Assembly (NCBI RefSeq): GCF_055900595.2
Contig: NZ_CM148325.1
Direction: 5' to 3' (one strand)
Length of the DNA: 64,000 nucleotides
In this document: in pieces, positions 1,071 to 34,910 of the stretch
Layout: each line of letters begins with the position of its first letter
Numbering within the stretch: position 1 is the first letter of the stretch
The notes under the pieces: generated by a model
The model's database searches: none
Seen by the model: only the letters and a program-made list of their open reading frames with translations
What the model was told of the DNA's origin: nothing
Made by a program: the position numbers and the translations under genes

Positions 1071-3962
<2,892 letters not shown>

Positions 3963-4486: not shown

Positions 4487-4512
4487 TTCTCCCGATTTCC
4501 TCAATTGAAATG

Positions 4513-4541
4513 AACCCGATGATCTGCGCATCGGGTTTTTT
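4513..4541 (+). terminator. Rho-independent terminator after cheW (end of motA-motB-cheA-cheW operon)
   Basis: Hairpin aacccgatg / catcgggtt followed by T-run (tcgggtttttt) read directly in sequence. Confidence 0.75.
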
Positions 4542-4572: not shown

Positions 4573-4599
4573 TAAAGTTTCCCCCCTCCTTGCCGATAA
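4573..4599 (+). promoter_or_regulatory. sigma28 (FliA) class III promoter of the tar-tap-cheRBYZ operon
   Basis: TAAAGTTT (4573-4580), 11-nt spacer, GCCGATAA (4592-4599): perfect match to the sigma28 consensus, about 30 nt upstream of tar ATG. Confidence 0.85.
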
Positions 4600-4630: not shown

Positions 4631-6292
4631 ATGATTAACCGTATCCGCGTAGTCACGCTGTTGGTAATGGTGCTGGGGGTATTCGCACTGTTACAGCTTA
4701 TTTCCGGCAGTCTGTTTTTTTCTTCCCTTCACCATAGCCAGAAGAGCTTTGTGGTTTCCAATCAATTACGGGAACAGCAGGGCGAGCTGACGTCAACCTG
4801 GGATTTAATGCTGCAAACGCGCATTAACCTGAGTCGTTCAGCGGTACGGATGATGATGGATTCCTCCAATCAACAAAGTAACGCCAAAGTTGAATTGCTC
4901 GATAGCGCCAGGAAAACATTGGCGCAGGCAGCGACGCATTATAAAAAATTCAAAAGCATGGCACCGTTACCTGAAATGGTCGCTACCAGTCGTAATATTG
5001 ATGAAAAATATAAAAACTATTACACAGCGTTAACTGAACTGATTGATTATCTAGATTATGGCAATACTGGAGCTTATTTCGCTCAGCCAACCCAGGGAAT
5101 GCAAAATGCAATGGGCGAAGCGTTTGCTCAGTACGCCCTCAGCAGTGAAAAACTGTATCGCGATATCGTCACTGACAACGCAGATGATTACCGATTTGCC
5201 CAGTGGCAACTGGCGGTTATCGCGCTGGTGGTGGTATTGATTCTGCTGGTGGCGTGGTACGGCATTCGCCGTATGTTGCTTACTCCGCTGGCAAAAATTA
5301 TTGCTCACATTCGCGAAATCGCCGGTGGTAACCTGGCGAATACCCTGACCATTGACGGGCGCAGTGAAATGGGCGACCTGGCGCAGAGCGTTTCACATAT
5401 GCAACGCTCTTTGACTGACACCGTCACTCATGTCCGCGAAGGTTCAGATGCCATCTATGCCGGTACCCGTGAAATTGCGGCGGGCAACACCGATCTTTCC
5501 TCCCGTACTGAACAGCAGGCATCCGCGCTGGAAGAAACTGCCGCCAGCATGGAGCAGCTCACCGCGACAGTGAAGCAAAACGCCGATAACGCCCGCCAGG
5601 CCTCGCAACTGGCGCAAAGTGCCTCCGACACCGCCCAGCACGGCGGCAAAGTGGTGGATGGCGTAGTGAAAACGATGCATGAGATCGCCGATAGTTCGAA
5701 GAAAATTGCCGACATTATCAGCGTTATCGACGGTATTGCCTTCCAGACTAATATCCTCGCGCTGAATGCCGCGGTTGAAGCCGCGCGTGCGGGTGAACAG
5801 GGCCGTGGTTTTGCCGTGGTGGCGGGTGAAGTGCGTAATCTTGCCAGTCGCAGCGCCCAGGCGGCAAAAGAGATCAAAGCCCTCATTGAAGACTCCGTCT
5901 CACGCGTTGATACCGGTTCGGTGCTGGTCGAAAGCGCCGGGGAAACAATGAACAATATCGTCAATGCTGTCACTCGCGTGACTGACATTATGGGCGAGAT
6001 TGCATCGGCATCGGATGAACAGAGCCGTGGCATCGATCAAGTCGCATTGGCGGTTTCGGAAATGGATCGCGTCACGCAACAGAACGCATCGCTGGTGCAG
6101 GAATCAGCTGCCGCCGCCGCTGCGCTGGAAGAACAGGCGAGTCGTTTAACGCAAGCGGTTTCCGCGTTCCGTCTGGCAGCCAGCCCACTCACCAATAAAC
6201 CGCAAACACCATCCCGTCCTGCCAGTGAGCAACCACCGGCACAGCCACGACTGCGAATTGCTGAACAAGATCCAAACTGGGAAACATTTTGA
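4631..6292 (+). CDS. tar: Methyl-accepting chemotaxis protein II Tar (aspartate/maltose receptor, 553 aa)
   Basis: ORF track 4610..6292 trimmed to ATG 4631 ([16 protein letters not shown]...); RBS caggaagg upstream; C-terminus ends NWETF. Confidence 0.95.
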
Positions 6293-6337
6293 CGAGTATT
6301 TACTAACGCGGTCATTGCCGCCTGATGGGGAGCGTTG

Positions 6338-7939
6338 ATGTTTAATCGTATTCGAATTTCGACCACGCTGTTTTTAATTTTGATTCTCTGCGGGATCTTG
6401 CAGATTGGCAGTAACGGCATGTCTTTTTGGGCATTTCGCGACGATTTGCAACGACTGAATCAGGTCGAGCAGAGCAATCAGCAACGTGCGGCATTAGCGC
6501 AAACTCGGGCGGTAATGTTACAGGCCAGTACCGCGCTGAACAAAGCGGGCACTCTGACGGCACTTAGCTATCCGGCGGATGACATTAAAACGTTGATGAC
6601 GACGGCGCGCGCCAGTCTGACGCAATCCACCACGCTGTTTAAAAGTTTTATGGCGATGACTGCGGGCAACGAGCACGTCAGGGCATTGCAAAAAGAGACG
6701 GAGAAAAGTTTTGCCCGCTGGCACAACGATCTCGAACATCAGGCGACCTGGCTTGAAAGTAATCAACTTTCGGATTTCCTCACTGCGCCGGTGCAGGGAT
6801 CACAGAATGCGTTTGACGTTAACTTTGAGGCCTGGCAGCTGGAGATCAACCATGTGCTGGAAGCCGCCAGTGCGCAAAGCCAGCGTAACTATCAGATTTC
6901 GGCACTGGTGTTTATCAGCATGATTATTGTTGCGGCGATCTACATCAGCAGTGCGCTGTGGTGGACGCGCAAGATGATTGTTCAACCACTGGCCATTATC
7001 GGTAGCCATTTTGACAGCATTGCTGCGGGTAATCTGGCGCGTCCGATTGCGGTATATGGTCGTAATGAGATCACCGCCATTTTTGCCAGTCTGAAGACCA
7101 TGCAGCAGGCTTTGCGTGGGACGGTAAGTGATGTGCGTAAGGGAAGCCAGGAGATGCACATTGGTATCGCGGAGATTGTCGCAGGCAATAACGATCTCTC
7201 AAGTCGTACCGAACAGCAGGCGGCATCGCTGGCACAAACGGCCGCCAGTATGGAGCAATTAACCGCCACGGTAGGGCAAAACGCCGATAACGCACGACAG
7301 GCGTCGGAACTGGCAAAAAATGCCGCGACAACGGCGCAGGCGGGCGGTGTTCAGGTCAGTACCATGACTCACACCATGCAGGAGATCGCCACCAGCTCGC
7401 AAAAAATTGGCGACATTATCAGCGTTATCGACGGAATTGCTTTCCAGACCAATATTCTGGCCCTGAATGCAGCAGTGGAAGCGGCTCGCGCCGGAGAGCA
7501 GGGGCGTGGTTTTGCGGTAGTGGCAGGTGAAGTGCGCAATCTTGCCAGCCGTAGCGCGCAGGCAGCAAAAGAGATCAAAGGGCTGATCGAAGAGTCAGTC
7601 AATCGTGTCCAGCAGGGTTCGAAACTGGTGAATAACGCCGCCGCGACCATGATCGATATTGTCAGTTCGGTGACCCGCGTGAACGACATTATGGGAGAAA
7701 TTGCCTCTGCGTCGGAAGAACAACAGCGGGGGATTGAGCAGGTTGCACAGGCTGTCAGCCAGATGGATCAGGTGACTCAGCAGAACGCCTCGCTGGTAGA
7801 AGAAGCGGCGGTGGCAACGGAACAACTGGCGAATCAGGCCGACCATCTTTCGTCGCGTGTGGCGGTATTTACCCTTGAAGAATATGAAGTAGCACGACAT
7901 GAGTCGGTGCAGTTACAAATTGCGCCAGTGGTATCCTGA
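6338..7939 (+). CDS. tap: Methyl-accepting chemotaxis protein IV Tap (dipeptide/pyrimidine receptor, 533 aa)
   Basis: ORF track 6335..7939 trimmed to ATG 6338 (MFNRIRISTTLFLILIL...); signalling domain near-identical to Tar; no NWETF tail. Confidence 0.95.
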   Translation: MFNRIRISTTLFLILILCGILQIGSNGMSFWAFRDDLQRLNQVEQSNQQRAALAQTRAVMLQASTALNKAGTLTALSYPADDIKTLMTTARASLTQSTTLFKSFMAMTAGNEHVRALQKETEKSFARWHNDLEHQATWLESNQLSDFLTAPVQGSQNAFDVNFEAWQLEINHVLEAASAQSQRNYQISALVFISMIIVAAIYISSALWWTRKMIVQPLAIIGSHFDSIAAGNLARPIAVYGRNEITAIFASLKTMQQALRGTVSDVRKGSQEMHIGIAEIVAGNNDLSSRTEQQAASLAQTAASMEQLTATVGQNADNARQASELAKNAATTAQAGGVQVSTMTHTMQEIATSSQKIGDIISVIDGIAFQTNILALNAAVEAARAGEQGRGFAVVAGEVRNLASRSAQAAKEIKGLIEESVNRVQQGSKLVNNAAATMIDIVSSVTRVNDIMGEIASASEEQQRGIEQVAQAVSQMDQVTQQNASLVEEAAVATEQLANQADHLSSRVAVFTLEEYEVARHESVQLQIAPVVS

Positions 7940-7957
7940 AGTGATTGAGAAGGCGCT

Positions 7958-8818
7958 ATGACTTCATCTCTGCCCTGTGGGCAAACGTCTTTATTGTTAC
8001 AGATGACCGAGCGCCTGGCGCTTTCCGACGCGCATTTTCGGCGGATAAGTCAATTGATCTATCAACGAGCCGGGATCGTTCTGGCTGACCATAAACGCGA
8101 CATGGTTTACAACCGACTGGTTCGTCGTTTGCGTTCGCTGGGACTGACGGATTTCGGTCATTATCTGAACTTGCTGGAATCTAATCAGCACAGCGGTGAG
8201 TGGCAGGCGTTTATCAATTCGCTGACCACGAATCTGACGGCATTTTTCCGTGAGGCACACCATTTCCCTCTGCTCGCGGATCACGCACGTCGCCGTTCTG
8301 GCGAGTATCGCGTATGGAGCGCGGCGGCTTCGACCGGCGAAGAGCCGTACAGCATTGCGATGACGCTGGCTGACACATTGGGCACCGCGCCCGGACGCTG
8401 GAAAGTGTTTGCCAGTGATATCGACACCAAAGTGCTGGAAAAAGCCAGAAGCGGTATTTATCGCCATGAAGAGTTGAAAAACCTGACGCCGCAGCAACTG
8501 CAACGGTATTTCATGCGAGGGACGGGACCGCATGAAGGGCTGGTACGCGTGCGTCAGGAGCTGGCGAACTATGTTGATTTTGCCCCGCTGAATCTACTGG
8601 CGAAACAGTACACCGTGCCGGGGCCGTTTGATGCGATCTTCTGTCGTAACGTCATGATCTACTTCGATCAAAATACCCAGCAGGAGATTTTGCGCCGCTT
8701 TGTTCCGCTCCTTAAACCCGACGGATTGCTGTTTGCGGGTCACTCTGAAAACTTTAGCCACCTTGAGCGCCGCTTCACGCTGCGTGGTCAGACGGTGTAT
8801 GCGCTAAGTAAGGATTAA
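7958..8818 (+). CDS. cheR: Chemotaxis methyltransferase CheR (286 aa)
   Basis: ORF track; [40 protein letters not shown]... Confidence 0.96.
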
Positions 8819-29829: not shown

Positions 29830-29863
29830 TGAGGCCTGCTAAACAGCAAAACGGAGACGCGTG

Positions 29864-30385
29864 ATGGCTATTATTCTCGGCATTGACCCGGGTTCGCGCG
29901 TGACCGGCTATGGCGTCATCCGCCAGGTAGGCAGGCAGCTGTCCTACCTGGGTAGCGGATGTATACGCACCAAAGTGGATGATTTACCGTCTCGTCTTAA
30001 GCTCATCTATGCGGGCGTGACGGAAATCATCACCCAGTTCCAGCCTGATTATTTCGCCATTGAACAAGTCTTTATGGCTAAAAATGCCGACTCGGCCCTG
30101 AAGCTGGGGCAGGCGCGTGGCGTGGCGATTGTGGCGGCGGTGAATCAGGAATTACCGGTATTTGAATACGCGGCACGTCAGGTAAAGCAAACGGTGGTAG
30201 GTATTGGTAGTGCCGAAAAAAGCCAGGTGCAGCATATGGTTCGCACCTTGCTGAAACTCCCCGCTAATCCTCAGGCGGATGCCGCTGATGCGCTGGCAAT
30301 TGCCATCACCCACTGCCACGTTAGTCAGAATGCGATGCAGATGAGCGAATCGCGGCTGAACCTGGCTCGCGGGAGACTGCGTTAA
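29864..30385 (+). CDS. ruvC: Holliday junction resolvase RuvC (173 aa)
   Basis: ORF track 29861..30385 trimmed to ATG 29864 ([19 protein letters not shown]...). Confidence 0.95.
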
Positions 30386-30443
30386 TAAGATTCAGGGAAT
30401 ATTCATTGCCGACTGGCAATTACTAGGGCAGGGAGTGCCTCTG

Positions 30444-31952
30444 ATGACAATGTTAAAAACAGTAAGATTCTGGCTCGTCGAATTAATACTGCTGGCAGTT
30501 GTGTTGCCCGTATTAGCGATAATTTTTTACTCCTGTACTCTATTTTTTCCTTTTTACGCCGAAGGCGGTATCTTGGAGTTTAGCGCCACACTAATAGTGA
30601 CTGCTTTAAGTGGTCTGGCGTTAGGAAGGGTAAGAAGTGCCTTTGTCCCGCTAAATTTATCATTCATTTCCCTGATCCTCCCGGAAACCCTGCTACTTTT
30701 TTATACACTTGTTGTCTGGCTAACATTACTTATTATTACGGATAGTGAGTTTAATAGTGGACTATTTTATACCGGGCAGGATTGGTTGGGCATTTTCAGC
30801 CTATTAACTGAGGCTGCGACGGAAGACGAATTTTTTACGCCATCGTTAATGCAGGTGGCTACGCCTGCGATACCGGCTGTGGGTATTCTGGTCTATATTG
30901 TCTCACTGACGCATGCTGCAAGAGGGCGAAACCGGCTGACGAACATTGTAGGATGGCGTTATATCGTAATCCCGGTTTTAATGGCGGTTATAAGCATTGC
31001 GGGATTACTCGCATGGCAAATCCATGACAGAAGTGAAAGAAAAGTGGTCAGTGTGCCAGAAACGCAGCTTTCTGAGCGCTTGGCATTAAAAGATTATTCT
31101 CCCTTTACCGCCAATAATAAATTAACACACCTCAATGAACAGGCCACGCTGGCGATAGCGAGTAACTGGCCGCAACTGAATGGCGCGACAGCGCTCTATC
31201 CACTGTATGCCTCGATGGCGCAAATGGTTTATCGCAATCTGAATGAGGAAAGTGCCGAGGATTATATAAAGTGCTGGAAAACCCAGGGAGCCTACACAGC
31301 TTTGATAGAAGGGCGCGCGGATCTTATTTTTGTCGCCGAACCCTCTGATGAGCAACGAGAGCAGGCGCGTAACAGTGGCGTTGGTTTGCATTTTTATCCT
31401 CTGGCGCGAGAGGCTTTTGTTTTTGTCACTCATAAAGATAATCCGGTTACAGCGTTGAGTGATAAACAGATCCGCCAAATCTATTCTGGCGACATCAATA
31501 ACTGGCAGGATGTTGGCGGGCGCGACGCACGGATCATGCCTTTTCAGCGACCGGAAGGCTCAGGTAGCCAGACAATTATGTTAGCGGCTGTGATGAAGCA
31601 GGAAAAAATGCGCAAACCGCTGGAAACGGAACGGATAAGCGAAATGCAGGGGTTGATACGTAATGTTGCCAGCTATCAGAACAGTACAAATGCTTTGGGG
31701 TATACGTTCCGGTACTACTCAACACAAATGCACCACAGCGATAATCTCCGCTTGCTAGCGGTAAATGGTATTGCGCCAACGGCAGAAAATATTCGCAGCG
31801 GGAAGTACCCCTATACGGTAACGGTTTATATGGTTAGCGCGGGAAGACCTGACGCGCAGGTGCAAAAAATAATCGACTGGTTTTTGAGTGCGCAGGGGCA
31901 GAAAATGGTCGCTGAAACCGGATATATCCCGTTGGGAAAATCAACCAGGTGA
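30444..31952 (+). CDS. Accessory membrane protein: about 190-aa multi-pass TM region fused to a C-terminal PstS-like periplasmic binding domain (502 aa from ATG 30444); function unknown
   Basis: ORF track 30435..31952; ATG 30444 follows RBS gggag; 5-6 hydrophobic segments then PstS-like residues (GSGSQT, YTFRYY); not recalled in K-12. Confidence 0.7.
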   Translation: MTMLKTVRFWLVELILLAVVLPVLAIIFYSCTLFFPFYAEGGILEFSATLIVTALSGLALGRVRSAFVPLNLSFISLILPETLLLFYTLVVWLTLLIITDSEFNSGLFYTGQDWLGIFSLLTEAATEDEFFTPSLMQVATPAIPAVGILVYIVSLTHAARGRNRLTNIVGWRYIVIPVLMAVISIAGLLAWQIHDRSERKVVSVPETQLSERLALKDYSPFTANNKLTHLNEQATLAIASNWPQLNGATALYPLYASMAQMVYRNLNEESAEDYIKCWKTQGAYTALIEGRADLIFVAEPSDEQREQARNSGVGLHFYPLAREAFVFVTHKDNPVTALSDKQIRQIYSGDINNWQDVGGRDARIMPFQRPEGSGSQTIMLAAVMKQEKMRKPLETERISEMQGLIRNVASYQNSTNALGYTFRYYSTQMHHSDNLRLLAVNGIAPTAENIRSGKYPYTVTVYMVSAGRPDAQVQKIIDWFLSAQGQKMVAETGYIPLGKSTR

Positions 31953-31964
31953 ACATACGTAAAT

Positions 31965-31993
31965 GGCAAAAACCATCACCAATGGTTTTTGCC
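31965..31993. terminator. Strong hairpin between convergent accessory ORF and yebB (putative bidirectional terminator)
   Basis: Perfect 12-bp stem ggcaaaaaccat / atggtttttgcc with cacc loop; no clean U-tract on either side. Confidence 0.55.
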
Positions 31994-32029
31994 ATGATAT
32001 GCGACTCACACTGCTTCTGGCAGCCTGGT

Positions 32030-32602
32030 TTAGTCATTATGACTGGCATGGATTAACGTCAACCCCGGATGATGCCACAAACTGGCTGGCGTGACGGTTT
32101 TACGCTCCCACGGAATAGAACCTAAGAACCAGAATTTCCAGAAAGTGAGTTTTGCATTTGGATTGCTGTTTAGCAGTTCTCCAAACGTCTCTATTTCACC
32201 CACCGGAATACATAACGCCTCTTTATAAATATCAAAAACGAATTTTGAACAGAACTGGCGGGAAGATTCGTATTTAAAACCGGTGTGGTAGAACTTATGC
32301 AACCGGGCAGGGACCTTTTCGACAAGAGCAAGTTTCTGCTCTGCGGTTAAACCTCCTGCCAGGCGGCGAACACCGTAGCGTTGCTCGGTCGACCGTTCAA
32401 TAAATCGTGACAAAGTTGTGATTGTGGAGAGCGGAACTCGACTCTCCGCAACCAGGTAATCATCACCGTCATGTCCGATGATTATCCCCACATGGTTGCT
32501 CCAGCATTTCGAGGCTGCAGAGATTTGCCCAAACAGGCGAGCACCGATGCAGGTAAAAACAATATCACCGGTTTCATATTTAGCTGGGTAATTTATTTTC
32601 AC
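32030..32602 (-). CDS. yebB: YebB, permuted papain-fold (NlpC/P60-superfamily, YiiX/YaeF-like) putative amidase (190 aa)
   Basis: ORF track; [46 protein letters not shown]... Cys/His pair; no signal peptide. Confidence 0.8.
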
Positions 32603-32695
32603 TATATCAATCCATTATTTATATATAAAACAGCATCTATCTTTCGTGATGGTAAAGCATTAGCATTGTATTGTAATAATGACAAGGAATGTTTT

Positions 32696-33520
32696 ATGCG
32701 GTTATTTATTAATGTGATAATGATAGTTTCGATCAGTCAATGCGTGAATGTATTTGCTCAAGATAATGTCATTCGCTATCCCTGGCGATATGGACGTATT
32801 TCTTTAAATGAGAATAATGAGTTTGTGCCTCAAATTATTCATATGCGTGATGATATCTACGGCGTGGGTGAAGTTGGTGCAAGCCTTAACGATGCGAGAA
32901 TGGCGCAAAGTGGTGTCACCGTGAGGCTTAGCGTTATACAGCAGGGGCAGGTGGTGAATGCTTTACTGGATTTCTACAATAGCAATAATCAACCTGCTTA
33001 TATATTTGAAGGCGGTTTATTGTCCTGCAATAAAGCCTTTGACATCACAACAAACAACATTGTCCTTGATGGGATGTGTGGAATTTATGATGGGGTCGAT
33101 GGCTGGCAAGTTATTCCTGCGGGTGAGCATTATAAAGAATCGTTTTCACTCACTCAGGCTTTTGAATTCTTGCCGGGAAAACATCATTATAAAATTAATG
33201 CCGGAGGTTTTATCATCAGAGTCGGGGATGATATTTTTGCAAGAGAAGATGCCGAAAGCATTCTTTTTGATTTGATTAACTGGCGATATGGCTATGTGCT
33301 AAAAAGTTATGAAAGGGTGTCAAAGGGGGATTTGATGGCAGGATATTATGCTCTGTATGAATACTCAGGCGCTGACATAATTGATGAGTATGATATTTAC
33401 TCAAACCAGGTGTCGATTGATCTTAATGGTGACGAGTTAGCACATACGGAGTCCTATCAGTGGCGAATTGATAGCGGAATGATCCCGGAAAAATTCAGCG
33501 TTCAGGGACTCGCTGAATGA
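32696..33520 (+). CDS. Accessory Sec-signal periplasmic/secreted protein of unknown function (274 aa from ATG 32696)
   Basis: ORF track 32471..33520 trimmed to ATG 32696 after RBS aagga; N-terminus MRLFINVIMIVSISQCVNVFA-QD is a signal peptide with VFA cleavage motif; AT-rich. Confidence 0.65.
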   Translation: MRLFINVIMIVSISQCVNVFAQDNVIRYPWRYGRISLNENNEFVPQIIHMRDDIYGVGEVGASLNDARMAQSGVTVRLSVIQQGQVVNALLDFYNSNNQPAYIFEGGLLSCNKAFDITTNNIVLDGMCGIYDGVDGWQVIPAGEHYKESFSLTQAFEFLPGKHHYKINAGGFIIRVGDDIFAREDAESILFDLINWRYGYVLKSYERVSKGDLMAGYYALYEYSGADIIDEYDIYSNQVSIDLNGDELAHTESYQWRIDSGMIPEKFSVQGLAE

Positions 33521-33557
33521 ATCGTCCTCTACCTGCTTGCCAGATACAGAGGCGCGG

Positions 33558-34127
33558 ATGAATTTATCAAGCGTATTCAATCAGCTTTTAATCTCATTAG
33601 CTCTTGCCGGGACGTTGATATCAAGCAGCTATCTCATGGAAGCTCACTACCCGCGTTTCAGGAAGCCAATTGCGTTCTTTTACTTCTTCTTAGCAATTTA
33701 TACCAGTTATGCTGCCGTTCTGGAGTATGAGTACCACCGCACTAGCTTGACTACGCTCGCAAAAGTTTCTTCGGTTCGTTATACCAGTAATTTTGAGCGT
33801 AGCGCCTCGCACTCCTGCAATTTACTGCGGGGAGGAAGGATTGATTGCACGGGGCTGTATGCCTATGACCTGACCTGGCAGATTGACGGTAAGACCTGGA
33901 ATTTGCATGTTGAGGACAAGCGTATAAAACCAGGATTCACCATGTGCGTGAAGGTTGTAAAAGATCGCCCCGCCATCGGGAAATCCTGTGAAAACGCGTT
34001 TTTCAATGTCAGCCCTTTGCCGATTCTGATAGCTATATGGGCAATCAGCGCATTTATATTTGCGGTCTTACTCCTTCACAGACTAAAAAAATGCCGCAAA
34101 TGGAAGCACGCCAGCAAGGGGCGTTGA
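33558..34127 (+). CDS. Accessory inner-membrane protein, 2 N-terminal TM + Cys-containing loop + C-terminal TM and basic tail (189 aa from ATG 33558)
   Basis: ORF track 33537..34127 (TTG) trimmed to ATG 33558 after RBS gagg; hydrophobic segments at about residues 8-27, 36-56, 163-183; 37 nt after upstream ORF. Confidence 0.6.
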   Translation: MNLSSVFNQLLISLALAGTLISSSYLMEAHYPRFRKPIAFFYFFLAIYTSYAAVLEYEYHRTSLTTLAKVSSVRYTSNFERSASHSCNLLRGGRIDCTGLYAYDLTWQIDGKTWNLHVEDKRIKPGFTMCVKVVKDRPAIGKSCENAFFNVSPLPILIAIWAISAFIFAVLLLHRLKKCRKWKHASKGR

Positions 34128-34229
34128 AAAATTGGGCATTAGAAGTGTGATGTAAGGGGGATTCATACAGAATTTCTGATGCTGTGAGCAAAAGGATTAT
34201 CATTTCTGAAATGATTTAATATCATCCCT

Positions 34230-34249
34230 CGCTGGATATCTATCCAGCA
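34230..34249 (+). promoter_or_regulatory. LexA (SOS) box of the ruvAB promoter
   Basis: cgCTGGatatctatCCAGca, the known CTGG-N8-CCAG variant SOS box, about 50 nt upstream of ruvA GTG. Confidence 0.85.
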
Positions 34250-34298
34250 TTTTTTTATCATACAGCATTATCTTTGATTCATTACGCAGGAGCGTCAT

Positions 34299-34910
34299 GT
34301 GATAGGCAGACTCAGAGGCATCATCATTGAAAAACAACCCCCACTGGTATTAATTGAAGTGGGCGGCGTAGGCTATGAAGTGCATATGCCGATGACCTGT
34401 TTTTATGAACTCCCTGAAGCGGGTCAGGAAGCGATCGTTTTCACCCACTTTGTGGTGCGTGAAGACGCGCAACTGCTGTACGGTTTTAACAATAAACAAG
34501 AGCGCACGTTGTTCAAAGAGTTGATCAAAACCAACGGCGTTGGGCCTAAACTGGCATTGGCAATCCTCTCCGGAATGTCAGCGCAGCAGTTCGTTAATGC
34601 CGTTGAGCGTGAAGAAGTGGGGGCGCTGGTGAAACTGCCGGGTATTGGCAAAAAAACCGCCGAACGCTTGATTGTCGAAATGAAAGACCGATTTAAAGGT
34701 TTACATGGCGATCTCTTTACGCCAGCTGCCGACCTGGTACTCACGTCACCTGCCAGCCCGGCGACCGATGATGCCGAACAGGAAGCGGTTGCCGCGCTGG
34801 TGGCGCTGGGCTATAAACCACAAGAAGCAAGCCGCATGGTGAGCAAAATCGCTCGCCCTGACGCCAGCAGTGAAACATTAATTCGCGAAGCCCTGCGCGC
34901 CGCGTTATGA
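34299..34910 (+). CDS. ruvA: Holliday junction branch-migration protein RuvA (203 aa), GTG start
   Basis: ORF track; [43 protein letters not shown]... Confidence 0.96.

Follow-up and report, generated by a model that had tools for sequence, protein, structure and literature searches.

The tandem chemoreceptor genes tar and tap of Escherichia coli: a homeologous signalling-domain repeat and natural 1701-bp fusions

Organization of the tar-tap locus

The window, i.e., the whole stretch of 64,000 nt that was analysed, carries two chemoreceptor genes back to back, as the first-pass annotation had claimed. All features described here lie on the plus strand. The first gene, tar (4631..6292), encodes the aspartate/maltose chemoreceptor (MCP-II), a protein of 553 amino acids ending in ...EQDPNWETF; the second, tap (6338..7939), encodes the dipeptide/pyrimidine chemoreceptor (MCP-IV), which is 533 amino acids long and ends in QLQIAPVVS without a pentapeptide. 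These assignments are based on the open reading frames, on Pfam domains and on the PGAP annotation of genomes with 100% identity; in a genome that is 100% identical over tar-tap, the PGAP coordinates of both genes are the same. Both receptors belong to the transmembrane methyl-accepting chemotaxis proteins of the Tar type. A Pfam search placed a TarH domain (PF02203), the N-terminal ligand-binding four-helix bundle, at residues 1-169 of Tar (4631-5137; E=2.9e-41) and 1-167 of Tap (6338-6838; E=2.2e-42), each scoring above the gathering threshold. In both proteins a HAMP domain (PF00672) follows, at residues 212-262 of Tar (5264-5416) and 209-260 of Tap (6962-7117), and then the MCP signalling domain (PF00015), at residues 325-482 of Tar (5603-6076; E=8.3e-63) and 323-480 of Tap (7304-7777; E=5.7e-56). 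Inspection of the translations by eye, rather than with a transmembrane predictor, indicates that the periplasmic domain of both receptors is flanked by two hydrophobic transmembrane segments, which in Tar measure 24 and 21 residues and have equivalents in Tap.

The two genes are separated by a spacer of 45 nt (6293..6337) with GGGGAG 5′ of the tap ATG, and a sequence scan found no terminator-like site in this spacer. After cheW, a terminator-like hairpin (4512..4538) consists of a 10-pair stem, GAACCCGATG...CATCGGGTTT, followed by a T-run (TTTATTT), and marks where the motAB-cheAW (mocha) operon ends. Between this hairpin and tar lies the promoter that serves the tar-tap-cheRBYZ (meche) operon (4573..4599), of class 3 and recognised by Sigma-28 (FliA). 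Its pattern, TAAAGTTT-N11-GCCGATAA, has a single match in the window, against a chance expectation of 0, and the FliA ChIP-seq site reported for tar-tap-cheRBYZ has the same sequence (PMC4183435). Many E. coli chromosomes, with the annotated order cheW-tar-tap-cheR, match the tar-tap region at 100% identity. Compared with MG1655 the window shows 99.9% DNA identity, and compared with several other strains 100%. With respect to tar (MCP-II) and tap (MCP-IV) of E. coli K-12, the genes, their order, the promoter, the protein tails and the meche operon are all the same; there is no difference of substance, and the allele of the window is a common one. The tar and tap of the window are two old tandem paralogues with which the FliA-dependent tar-tap-cheRBYZ operon of E. 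coli begins. The pair, its operon and the NWETF difference described below are textbook knowledge and the window itself is not new, so that the label of known biology given at first pass holds: the genes match the annotated tar and tap of E. coli.

The two receptors differ at their C-terminus. The translations confirm the earlier reading that Tar ends in NWETF, encoded at 6275..6289 (residues 549-553), and that Tap, ending in QLQIAPVVS, is devoid of it; the pentapeptide serves as the CheR/CheB docking tether according to the literature. A C-terminal tether of the NWETF/NWESF type is present in Tar (...EQDPNWETF) and missing from Tap (...QLQIAPVVS), and a protein comparison shows NWETF at the end of Tar and Tsr, while it is missing from Tap and Trg. 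Therefore, Tap was filed with the pentapeptide-less class. The tails found in the window fit the split between high-abundance receptors (Tar, Tsr) and low-abundance receptors without pentapeptide (Trg, Tap). Indeed, Tap is described in published work as a low-abundance receptor without the NWETF that recruits CheR, in agreement with the first-pass statement. CheR and CheB would dock on the C-terminal NWETF tether of Tar. As for Tap, the established literature implies that, since it is without a tether, its efficient adaptation would rely on nearby receptors of the array that do carry one.

Extent and origin of the repeated DNA

The likeness of tar and tap is detected as two families of direct DNA repeats, the first pairing 5672-5971 with 7373-7672 (300 nt, 77% identity) and the second 5462-5646 with 7163-7347 (185 nt, 74% identity); both are far above chance. 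The homologous signalling-domain DNA extends over 5440..6130 in tar and 7141..7831 in tap, with an offset of +1701, an identity of 70.8% over 691 nt and a core (5681-5890) at 83%. The first-pass annotation had described this DNA as near-identical and had paired 5690..5880 with 7410..7590. The repeat is real; the near-identity was overstated and the pairing was in the wrong register. In the true register of +1701 nt, 5690-5880 aligns to 7391-7581 with 83.2% identity, and the best 60-nt windows of the alignment reach 85-88%. The longest uninterrupted matches measure 24, 18, and 16 nt; tar and tap have four 21-mers in common, and a k-mer comparison of both genes found no common 25-mer. In the N-terminal halves, identity falls to ~41% for DNA and 24% for protein; the repeat does not extend beyond the cytoplasmic signalling domain and, at 70-83% identity, is homeologous rather than near-identical.

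Residues 361-400 of Tar are 100% identical to Tap in protein and only 84% in DNA. The conserved segment comprises the methylation helices and the hairpin tip touching CheA and CheW, and the repeat very probably exists because this protein segment is under strong purifying selection, which keeps the DNA of the two genes alike. At identical residues, the third positions of four-fold codons match with a frequency of 0.29. Over the signalling domain, tar is closer to the unlinked tsr (76.7% DNA identity) than to tap (70.4%). Furthermore, tar followed by tap is found in two other enteric genomes (L014 and L016), with the tails NWETF and ...PVVS. These two non-E. coli loci were reached by a protein search with the Tap ligand-binding domain, the matches of which were mostly fragments, and L015 was excluded from the enteric comparison as too fragmented. 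Between enterics, orthologue identity amounts to 82.6% for tar and 73.9% for tap, as compared to 68-70% for paralogues within a genome.

The tandem layout, the same domain architecture and the single operon might suggest that tap arose from tar by a recent tandem duplication, of which the similarity is a residue. However, the ligand-binding halves retain only the 24% (protein) and ~41% (DNA) identity given above, synonymous sites are saturated, the tandem with the same NWETF and NWETF-less tails already exists in other enteric genera, and Tsr is nearer to Tar than Tap is; a recent duplication is hardly credible. Ongoing gene conversion, i.e., concerted evolution keeping the signalling-domain DNA nearly identical, is just as hard to credit, even if the genes adjoin in the same orientation, share a repeat of ~700 nt and use identical codons modestly more often than the codon-usage null (85 same codons observed at identical signalling-domain residues versus 62 expected). 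This excess probably points to a shared site-specific codon preference rather than to conversion, because unlinked receptor pairs show a similar or higher excess. Against conversion stand also the identity of only 70-83%, the low match at four-fold sites, the greater likeness of tar to the unlinked tsr and the orthologues from other genera that are closer than the paralogues of the same genome. Finally, no converted core tract was found in ~5,400 E. coli genomes, where the chimeric patch queries gave at most 93.9%, which is the unconverted baseline; one chimeric-patch match, of partial coverage, was 95-99% identical. Gene conversion between tar and tap, which had been proposed at first pass, was thus rejected by four tests (randomised synonymous sites, unlinked-paralogue control, orthologues versus paralogues, and population queries with chimeric patches). 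As the source of the repeat it appears largely refuted, and any converted tracts would be very short or very old.

Loss of tap and natural tar-tap fusions

Most of tap is missing in ~1,060 of ~5,400 complete genomes (~20%), ST131 included, and the loss is common in phylogroup B2. In ST131 and other genomes we found a 1374-bp deletion inside tap, bounded by a 12-nt microhomology, GAATCAGG(T/C)CGA, at 6457..6468 (upstream copy) and 7831..7842 (downstream copy, at the deletion junction). In these B2 genomes tar is intact with its NWETF, and the lesion is not a tar/tap exchange; this candidate was rejected, as the deletion measures 1374 bp instead of 1701 bp and both its ends lie inside tap. According to papers citing them, Lane et al. 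(2006) and Borziak et al. (2013) reported the loss of tap in E. coli of the uropathogenic/phylogroup B2 type, and our count agrees with this. In all, there are at least three ways in which E. coli has lost tap, namely microhomology deletion (B2 type), fusion with tar and IS1-mediated deletion. As a side observation on chromosomal duplication, the query with the tap 5′ region matched at most two places per genome and two places on plasmids, the bookkeeping of which is ambiguous.

In the window, tar and tap are both intact, hence no in-register loss of 1701 bp has taken place. This loss, leaving a single Tar-N/Tap-C gene beside cheR, is present in the related loci L005-L011. With a split query, the exact 1701-bp in-frame fusion was detected in 3 of ~5,390 complete genomes. 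The product is a hybrid gene of 1608 nt, encoding 535 amino acids without NWETF and directly followed by cheR. In strains ET474 and PEC389 (fusion A) the crossover tract is the longest exact tract of the alignment, 24 nt at 5710..5733 (= 7411-7434), corresponding to Tar codons 360-368 (ADIISVIDG). In strain ETEC4088 (fusion B) it is the second-longest, 18 nt at 5575..5592 (= 7276-7293), corresponding to codons 315-321 (KQNADNA). Under uniform placement, the chance of both breakpoints falling inside the two longest identity tracts is 0.004. The three fusion genomes represent two independent events, so that the fusion has arisen at least twice in nature. Exact copies of the hybrid proteins were found, on 71 contigs for one and 28 for the other, and the context is cheW-hybrid-cheR in every case; both recur in dozens of other assemblies; one occurrence lies in a diverged background (5 SNPs per 4.2 kb). 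The fusion isolates come from frog and pig faeces and from China, Korea, and Belgium. The reciprocal Tap-N/Tar-C gene expected from a tar-hybrid-tap duplication was found in 0 genomes with the split query, which covers junctions within tar 5440-6000.

An unequal exchange in register would remove exactly 1701 bp and would yield an in-frame receptor with the N-terminus of Tar and the C-terminus of Tap, without NWETF. The route to the fusions may have been RecA-dependent exchange or, alternatively, replication slippage or annealing. The early suggestion that the repeat is a recombination substrate is thereby supported by the natural 1701-bp fusions, the crossovers of which map to the two longest tracts of identity, and the homeologous repeat is a weak but real substrate.

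The same suggestion included the remark that the repeat can confuse assemblies, and one may ask if the window or the 1701-bp fusions result from collapse or mis-joining of the paralogues. The fusion joints do lie exactly at the common 24- and 18-nt k-mers, where mis-joining in a de Bruijn graph of small k is conceivable. On the other hand, tar and tap have no 25-mer in common, many independent complete genomes share the intact layout of the window with 100% identity, and each fusion protein occurs in many independent assemblies from varied sources and countries in a constant context, including finished chromosomes and the slightly diverged background. An assembly artefact is therefore very improbable; the remark was not substantiated, and the repeat should not trouble assemblers. 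Overall, the best explanation is very probably that tar and tap are old tandem paralogues whose repeat is held by constraint and acts as a weak but real recombination substrate.

Possible significance of the fusion receptors

Spontaneous tar-tap deletions through the homologous C-terminal coding regions, giving Tar-N/Tap-C hybrids, were reportedly obtained in the laboratory in 1987 (Slocum, Halden and Parkinson, J Bacteriol 169:2938), and the natural 1701-bp fusions have the same architecture as those hybrid transducers. They differ from the laboratory hybrids in that they occur in wild isolates and in many assemblies. The Tar-Tap chimeras of 1998 (Weerasuriya, Schneider and Manson, J Bacteriol 180:914) are said to have been joined in the linker near HAMP, whereas the natural junctions lie far inside the signalling domain, at Tar codons 315-321 and 360-368. 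No published report of natural tar-tap fusions was found in the searchable literature, which omits most subscription papers.

In the fusion receptors, sensing, HAMP and the first methylation helix would be those of Tar, and the hairpin tip and the C-terminus those of Tap. By analogy with Tap, a fusion receptor would adapt with the help of tether-bearing receptors, for instance Tsr. In these lineages the fusion might be neutral or degenerative instead of functional. A tentative and rather unlikely reading is that the fusion receptors are functional alleles which persist in E. coli lineages in circulation, for the most part associated with animals, and are not transient debris.

The natural fusions neatly illustrate how little perfectly matched sequence is needed to support a deletion. 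Since PGAP names the fusion alleles plain "tar", surveys of chemoreceptor repertoires will miscount them. Finally, if the fusion receptors are indeed functional alleles, a single step would strip dipeptide and pyrimidine sensing and deprive the aspartate receptor of its own NWETF tether, and one exchange of 1701 bp at an identity tract of 24 or 18 nt would be a recurrent evolutionary shortcut.

The tar-tap pair and its setting

The window carries two co-oriented ORFs, tar (4631-6292, + strand, 553 aa) and tap (6338-7939, + strand, 533 aa), whose products both contain a TarH ligand-binding domain, a HAMP domain and an MCP signalling domain. A 3.6-kb query across the pair matches many complete E. 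coli chromosomes at 100% identity and K-12 MG1655 at 99.9%, and the PGAP features beneath the match are cheW, tar (MCP-II), tap (MCP-IV) and cheR. Strain E308 also agrees with the window at 100% across tar-tap, and its annotated gene coordinates are those of our ORFs. As the first-pass annotation had described, the translated Tar ends in ...EQDPNWETF, with the CheR/CheB docking pentapeptide NWETF, and Tap ends in ...QLQIAPVVS without it. Comparison of four tails places NWETF on Tar and Tsr and not on Tap and Trg, consistent with the literature, in which Tap is a low-abundance receptor that lacks the NWETF by which CheR is recruited. The pair is biology already known, and was rightly labelled so.

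A terminator-like hairpin (4512-4538) lies 3′ of cheW, upstream of tar. A pattern scan located a perfect sigma-28 promoter, TAAAGTTT-N11-GCCGATAA, at 4573-4599 upstream of tar; this is the single match in the whole window (0 expected by chance), and the FliA ChIP-seq site for tar-tap-cheRBYZ has the same letters (PMC4183435). The wider gene order is flhC-motAB-cheAW-tar-tap-cheRBYZ-flhBAE, continuing to prc. Antisense ORFs opposite the signalling-domain coding sequences of both paralogues (5455-6033, minus strand, 192 aa; 7369-7689, minus strand, 106 aa) are most likely by-products of the Ala/Gln/Glu-rich, GC-rich coding frame and not genes.

Elsewhere in the window, the yebB locus is present in a rare variant form at 30386-34298, between ruvC (29861-30385) and ruvA (34299-34910). 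It encodes a PstS/PBP_like_2 protein of 505 aa (30435-31952), a divergent YebB on the minus strand (32030-32602), a protein of 349 aa that has no Pfam match (32471-33520) and a 196-aa ORF (33537-34127). Among 5,426 complete genomes of E. coli, only 8 contain 80% or more of this stretch of 3.9 kb, the best match (97.9% identity) being a dog isolate from Korea; the remaining genomes match at yebB/yobI only (~83% identity).

Extent and source of the tar/tap repeat

The genes, their tails and the repeat are real, but the first-pass description of the shared stretches as nearly identical, and its pairing of 5690-5880 with 7410-7590, were inaccurate. The register of the repeat is +1701 nt, so that 5690-5880 pairs with 7391-7581, at 83.2% identity. 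The best 60-nt windows of the alignment reach 85-88%, the full alignable stretch (5440-6130 versus 7141-7831) is 70.8% identical, and the direct repeat has one family of 300 nt (77% identity) and another of 185 nt (74%). Uninterrupted matches extend to at most 24 nt (5710-5733), followed by 18 nt (5575-5592) and 16 nt, and the two genes have four 21-mers in common. They share no 25-mer and their arrangement is reproduced at 100% in many complete genomes, which argues against the suggested confusion of assemblies. The sensing halves (~41% DNA identity) are for practical purposes unrelated at the DNA level.

The DNA similarity follows protein conservation. Over Tar residues 361-400, identity with Tap is 100% in protein and only 84% in DNA, and where the signalling domains have the same four-fold-degenerate residue, third codon positions agree in 29% of cases, essentially at random. 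Gene conversion, which had also been proposed, is not supported: these random four-fold sites and three further observations speak against it. Same-codon use does exceed a simple codon-usage null (85 observed versus 62 expected); however, unlinked receptor pairs behave similarly, so that the excess does not point to adjacency. Using tsr and trg from K-12 for comparison, the signalling-domain DNA of tar is more similar to that of tsr (76.7%; longest common exact run 28 nt), a gene megabases away, than to that of the adjacent tap (70.4%).

Moreover, two non-E. coli enteric contigs, found via the Tap ligand-binding domain, both hold cheW, a transporter gene, tar, tap and cheR, with Tar ending in NWETF and Tap in ...PVVS. 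In the signalling region, each gene is closer to its E. coli orthologue (82.6% identity for tar, 73.9% for tap) than the paralogues inside one genome are to each other (only 68-70%). This indicates the absence of concerted evolution and, together with the tail patterns, that the duplication and the tether difference are older than the genus split. Finally, chimeric queries (the 171-nt core of one gene in the flanks of the other) revealed no converted core tract among ~5,400 E. coli genomes, matching at 93.9% at most at full coverage, about the level of unconverted alleles (calculated baseline ≈92.6%).

The transporter in the two contigs belongs to the SDF family (PF00375) and lies on the opposite strand between cheW and tar (L014 1636-2895; L016 1630-2889); the corresponding gap in E. 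coli is only a 144-nt promoter spacer.

Lesions that remove tap

In ~1,060 genomes (~20%), ST131 among them, only the ends of tap remain. This widespread loss, as resolved in an ST131 chromosome, reflects the removal of 1374 bp from inside tap between 12-nt microhomologies, GAATCAGG(T/C)CGA (copies at 6457-6468 and 7831-7842; junction at 3557-3568 of the retrieved locus L001), accompanied by a frameshift; PGAP names the stub left behind 'Tar ligand binding domain-containing protein'. Given these tap-internal boundaries and an intact tar, a tar/tap exchange is ruled out for this lesion. The deletion matches the Tap loss published for uropathogenic and B2 strains (Lane 2006 and Borziak 2013, as cited in other papers). 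In 23CRST038 (NZ_AP045810.1; L002 4232-5135), IS1 truncates tar after ~65 codons, and chromosomal sequence continues beyond it with a truncated yecT, whose annotation reads partial LprI-family lysozyme inhibitor; tap, cheRBYZ, flhBAE and most of tar are deleted (all through flhE), and this strain is presumably non-motile.

Among the matches of the protein search are Tap variants with many different truncations or internal deletions (e.g., P0074, 22 contigs; P0080, 11 contigs; P0021, P0096 and P0087). They include 194-aa N-terminal fragments (96-100% identity), a TarH+MCPsignal form of 348 aa and one of 174 aa that matches TarH and CheB_methylest, and they suggest that E. coli tap has been pseudogenised repeatedly through several independent lesions. 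In the E. coli genome collection, each tar-tap query matched records labelled plasmid in 2-4 places, and the tap 5′ region occurred in two places in two genomes; candidate explanations are F-prime-like plasmids, mislabelled replicons and IS-interrupted genes.

Tar-Tap fusions in natural isolates

The proposal that the repeat is a substrate for recombination is borne out. It is testable, as an in-register exchange must remove exactly 1701 bp. We used a split query (tar 5100-5400 plus 7800-8100), whose halves merge into one place only if ~1.7 kb is absent between them, and identified the deletion in 3 of 5,386 genomes: ET474 (frog, China), PEC389 (pig, Korea) and ETEC4088 (pig, Belgium). Each has a single 1608-nt gene between cheW and cheR, which PGAP names "tar". 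Mapped against the window, the crossover falls at Tar codons 360-368 in ET474 and PEC389, within the 24-nt tract (5710-5733), and at Tar codons 315-321 in ETEC4088, within the 18-nt tract (5575-5592). Under uniform placement in the 691-nt region, the chance of hitting the longest and second-longest identity tracts is ~0.004. A further split query of the E. coli genome collection, covering junctions within tar 5440-6000, gave no genome with the reciprocal duplication product.

The exact fusion proteins occur in 71 and 28 contigs of a large protein collection, the order cheW-hybrid-cheR is kept in every context read, and one carrier of the ET474/PEC389 fusion differs from the others by 5 SNPs per 4.2 kb; the fusions are therefore not accidents of single assemblies. 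In one carrier of that fusion (L011 4127-4986), a 1-nt indel splits cheR into ORFs of 210 and 89 aa; the assembly may be wrong here, or the isolate's adaptation system may have decayed further.

In both fusion proteins, the sensing domain, HAMP and first methylation helix derive from Tar and the remainder from Tap, so that NWETF is missing. Spontaneous laboratory tar-tap deletions of the same kind were reportedly obtained by Slocum, Halden and Parkinson in 1987, and Weerasuriya et al. are said to have found in 1998 that a Tar-Tap chimera signals poorly, the absent C-terminal tail being responsible. In E. coli recombination, the minimal efficient processing segment is about the size of the 24-nt tract, and the 18-nt tract falls below it; the exchange may have been RecA-mediated or may have come from replication slippage or annealing. 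What is modestly new is that in-frame Tar-Tap fusion alleles, born where exact identity runs longest, are in circulation among wild E. coli.
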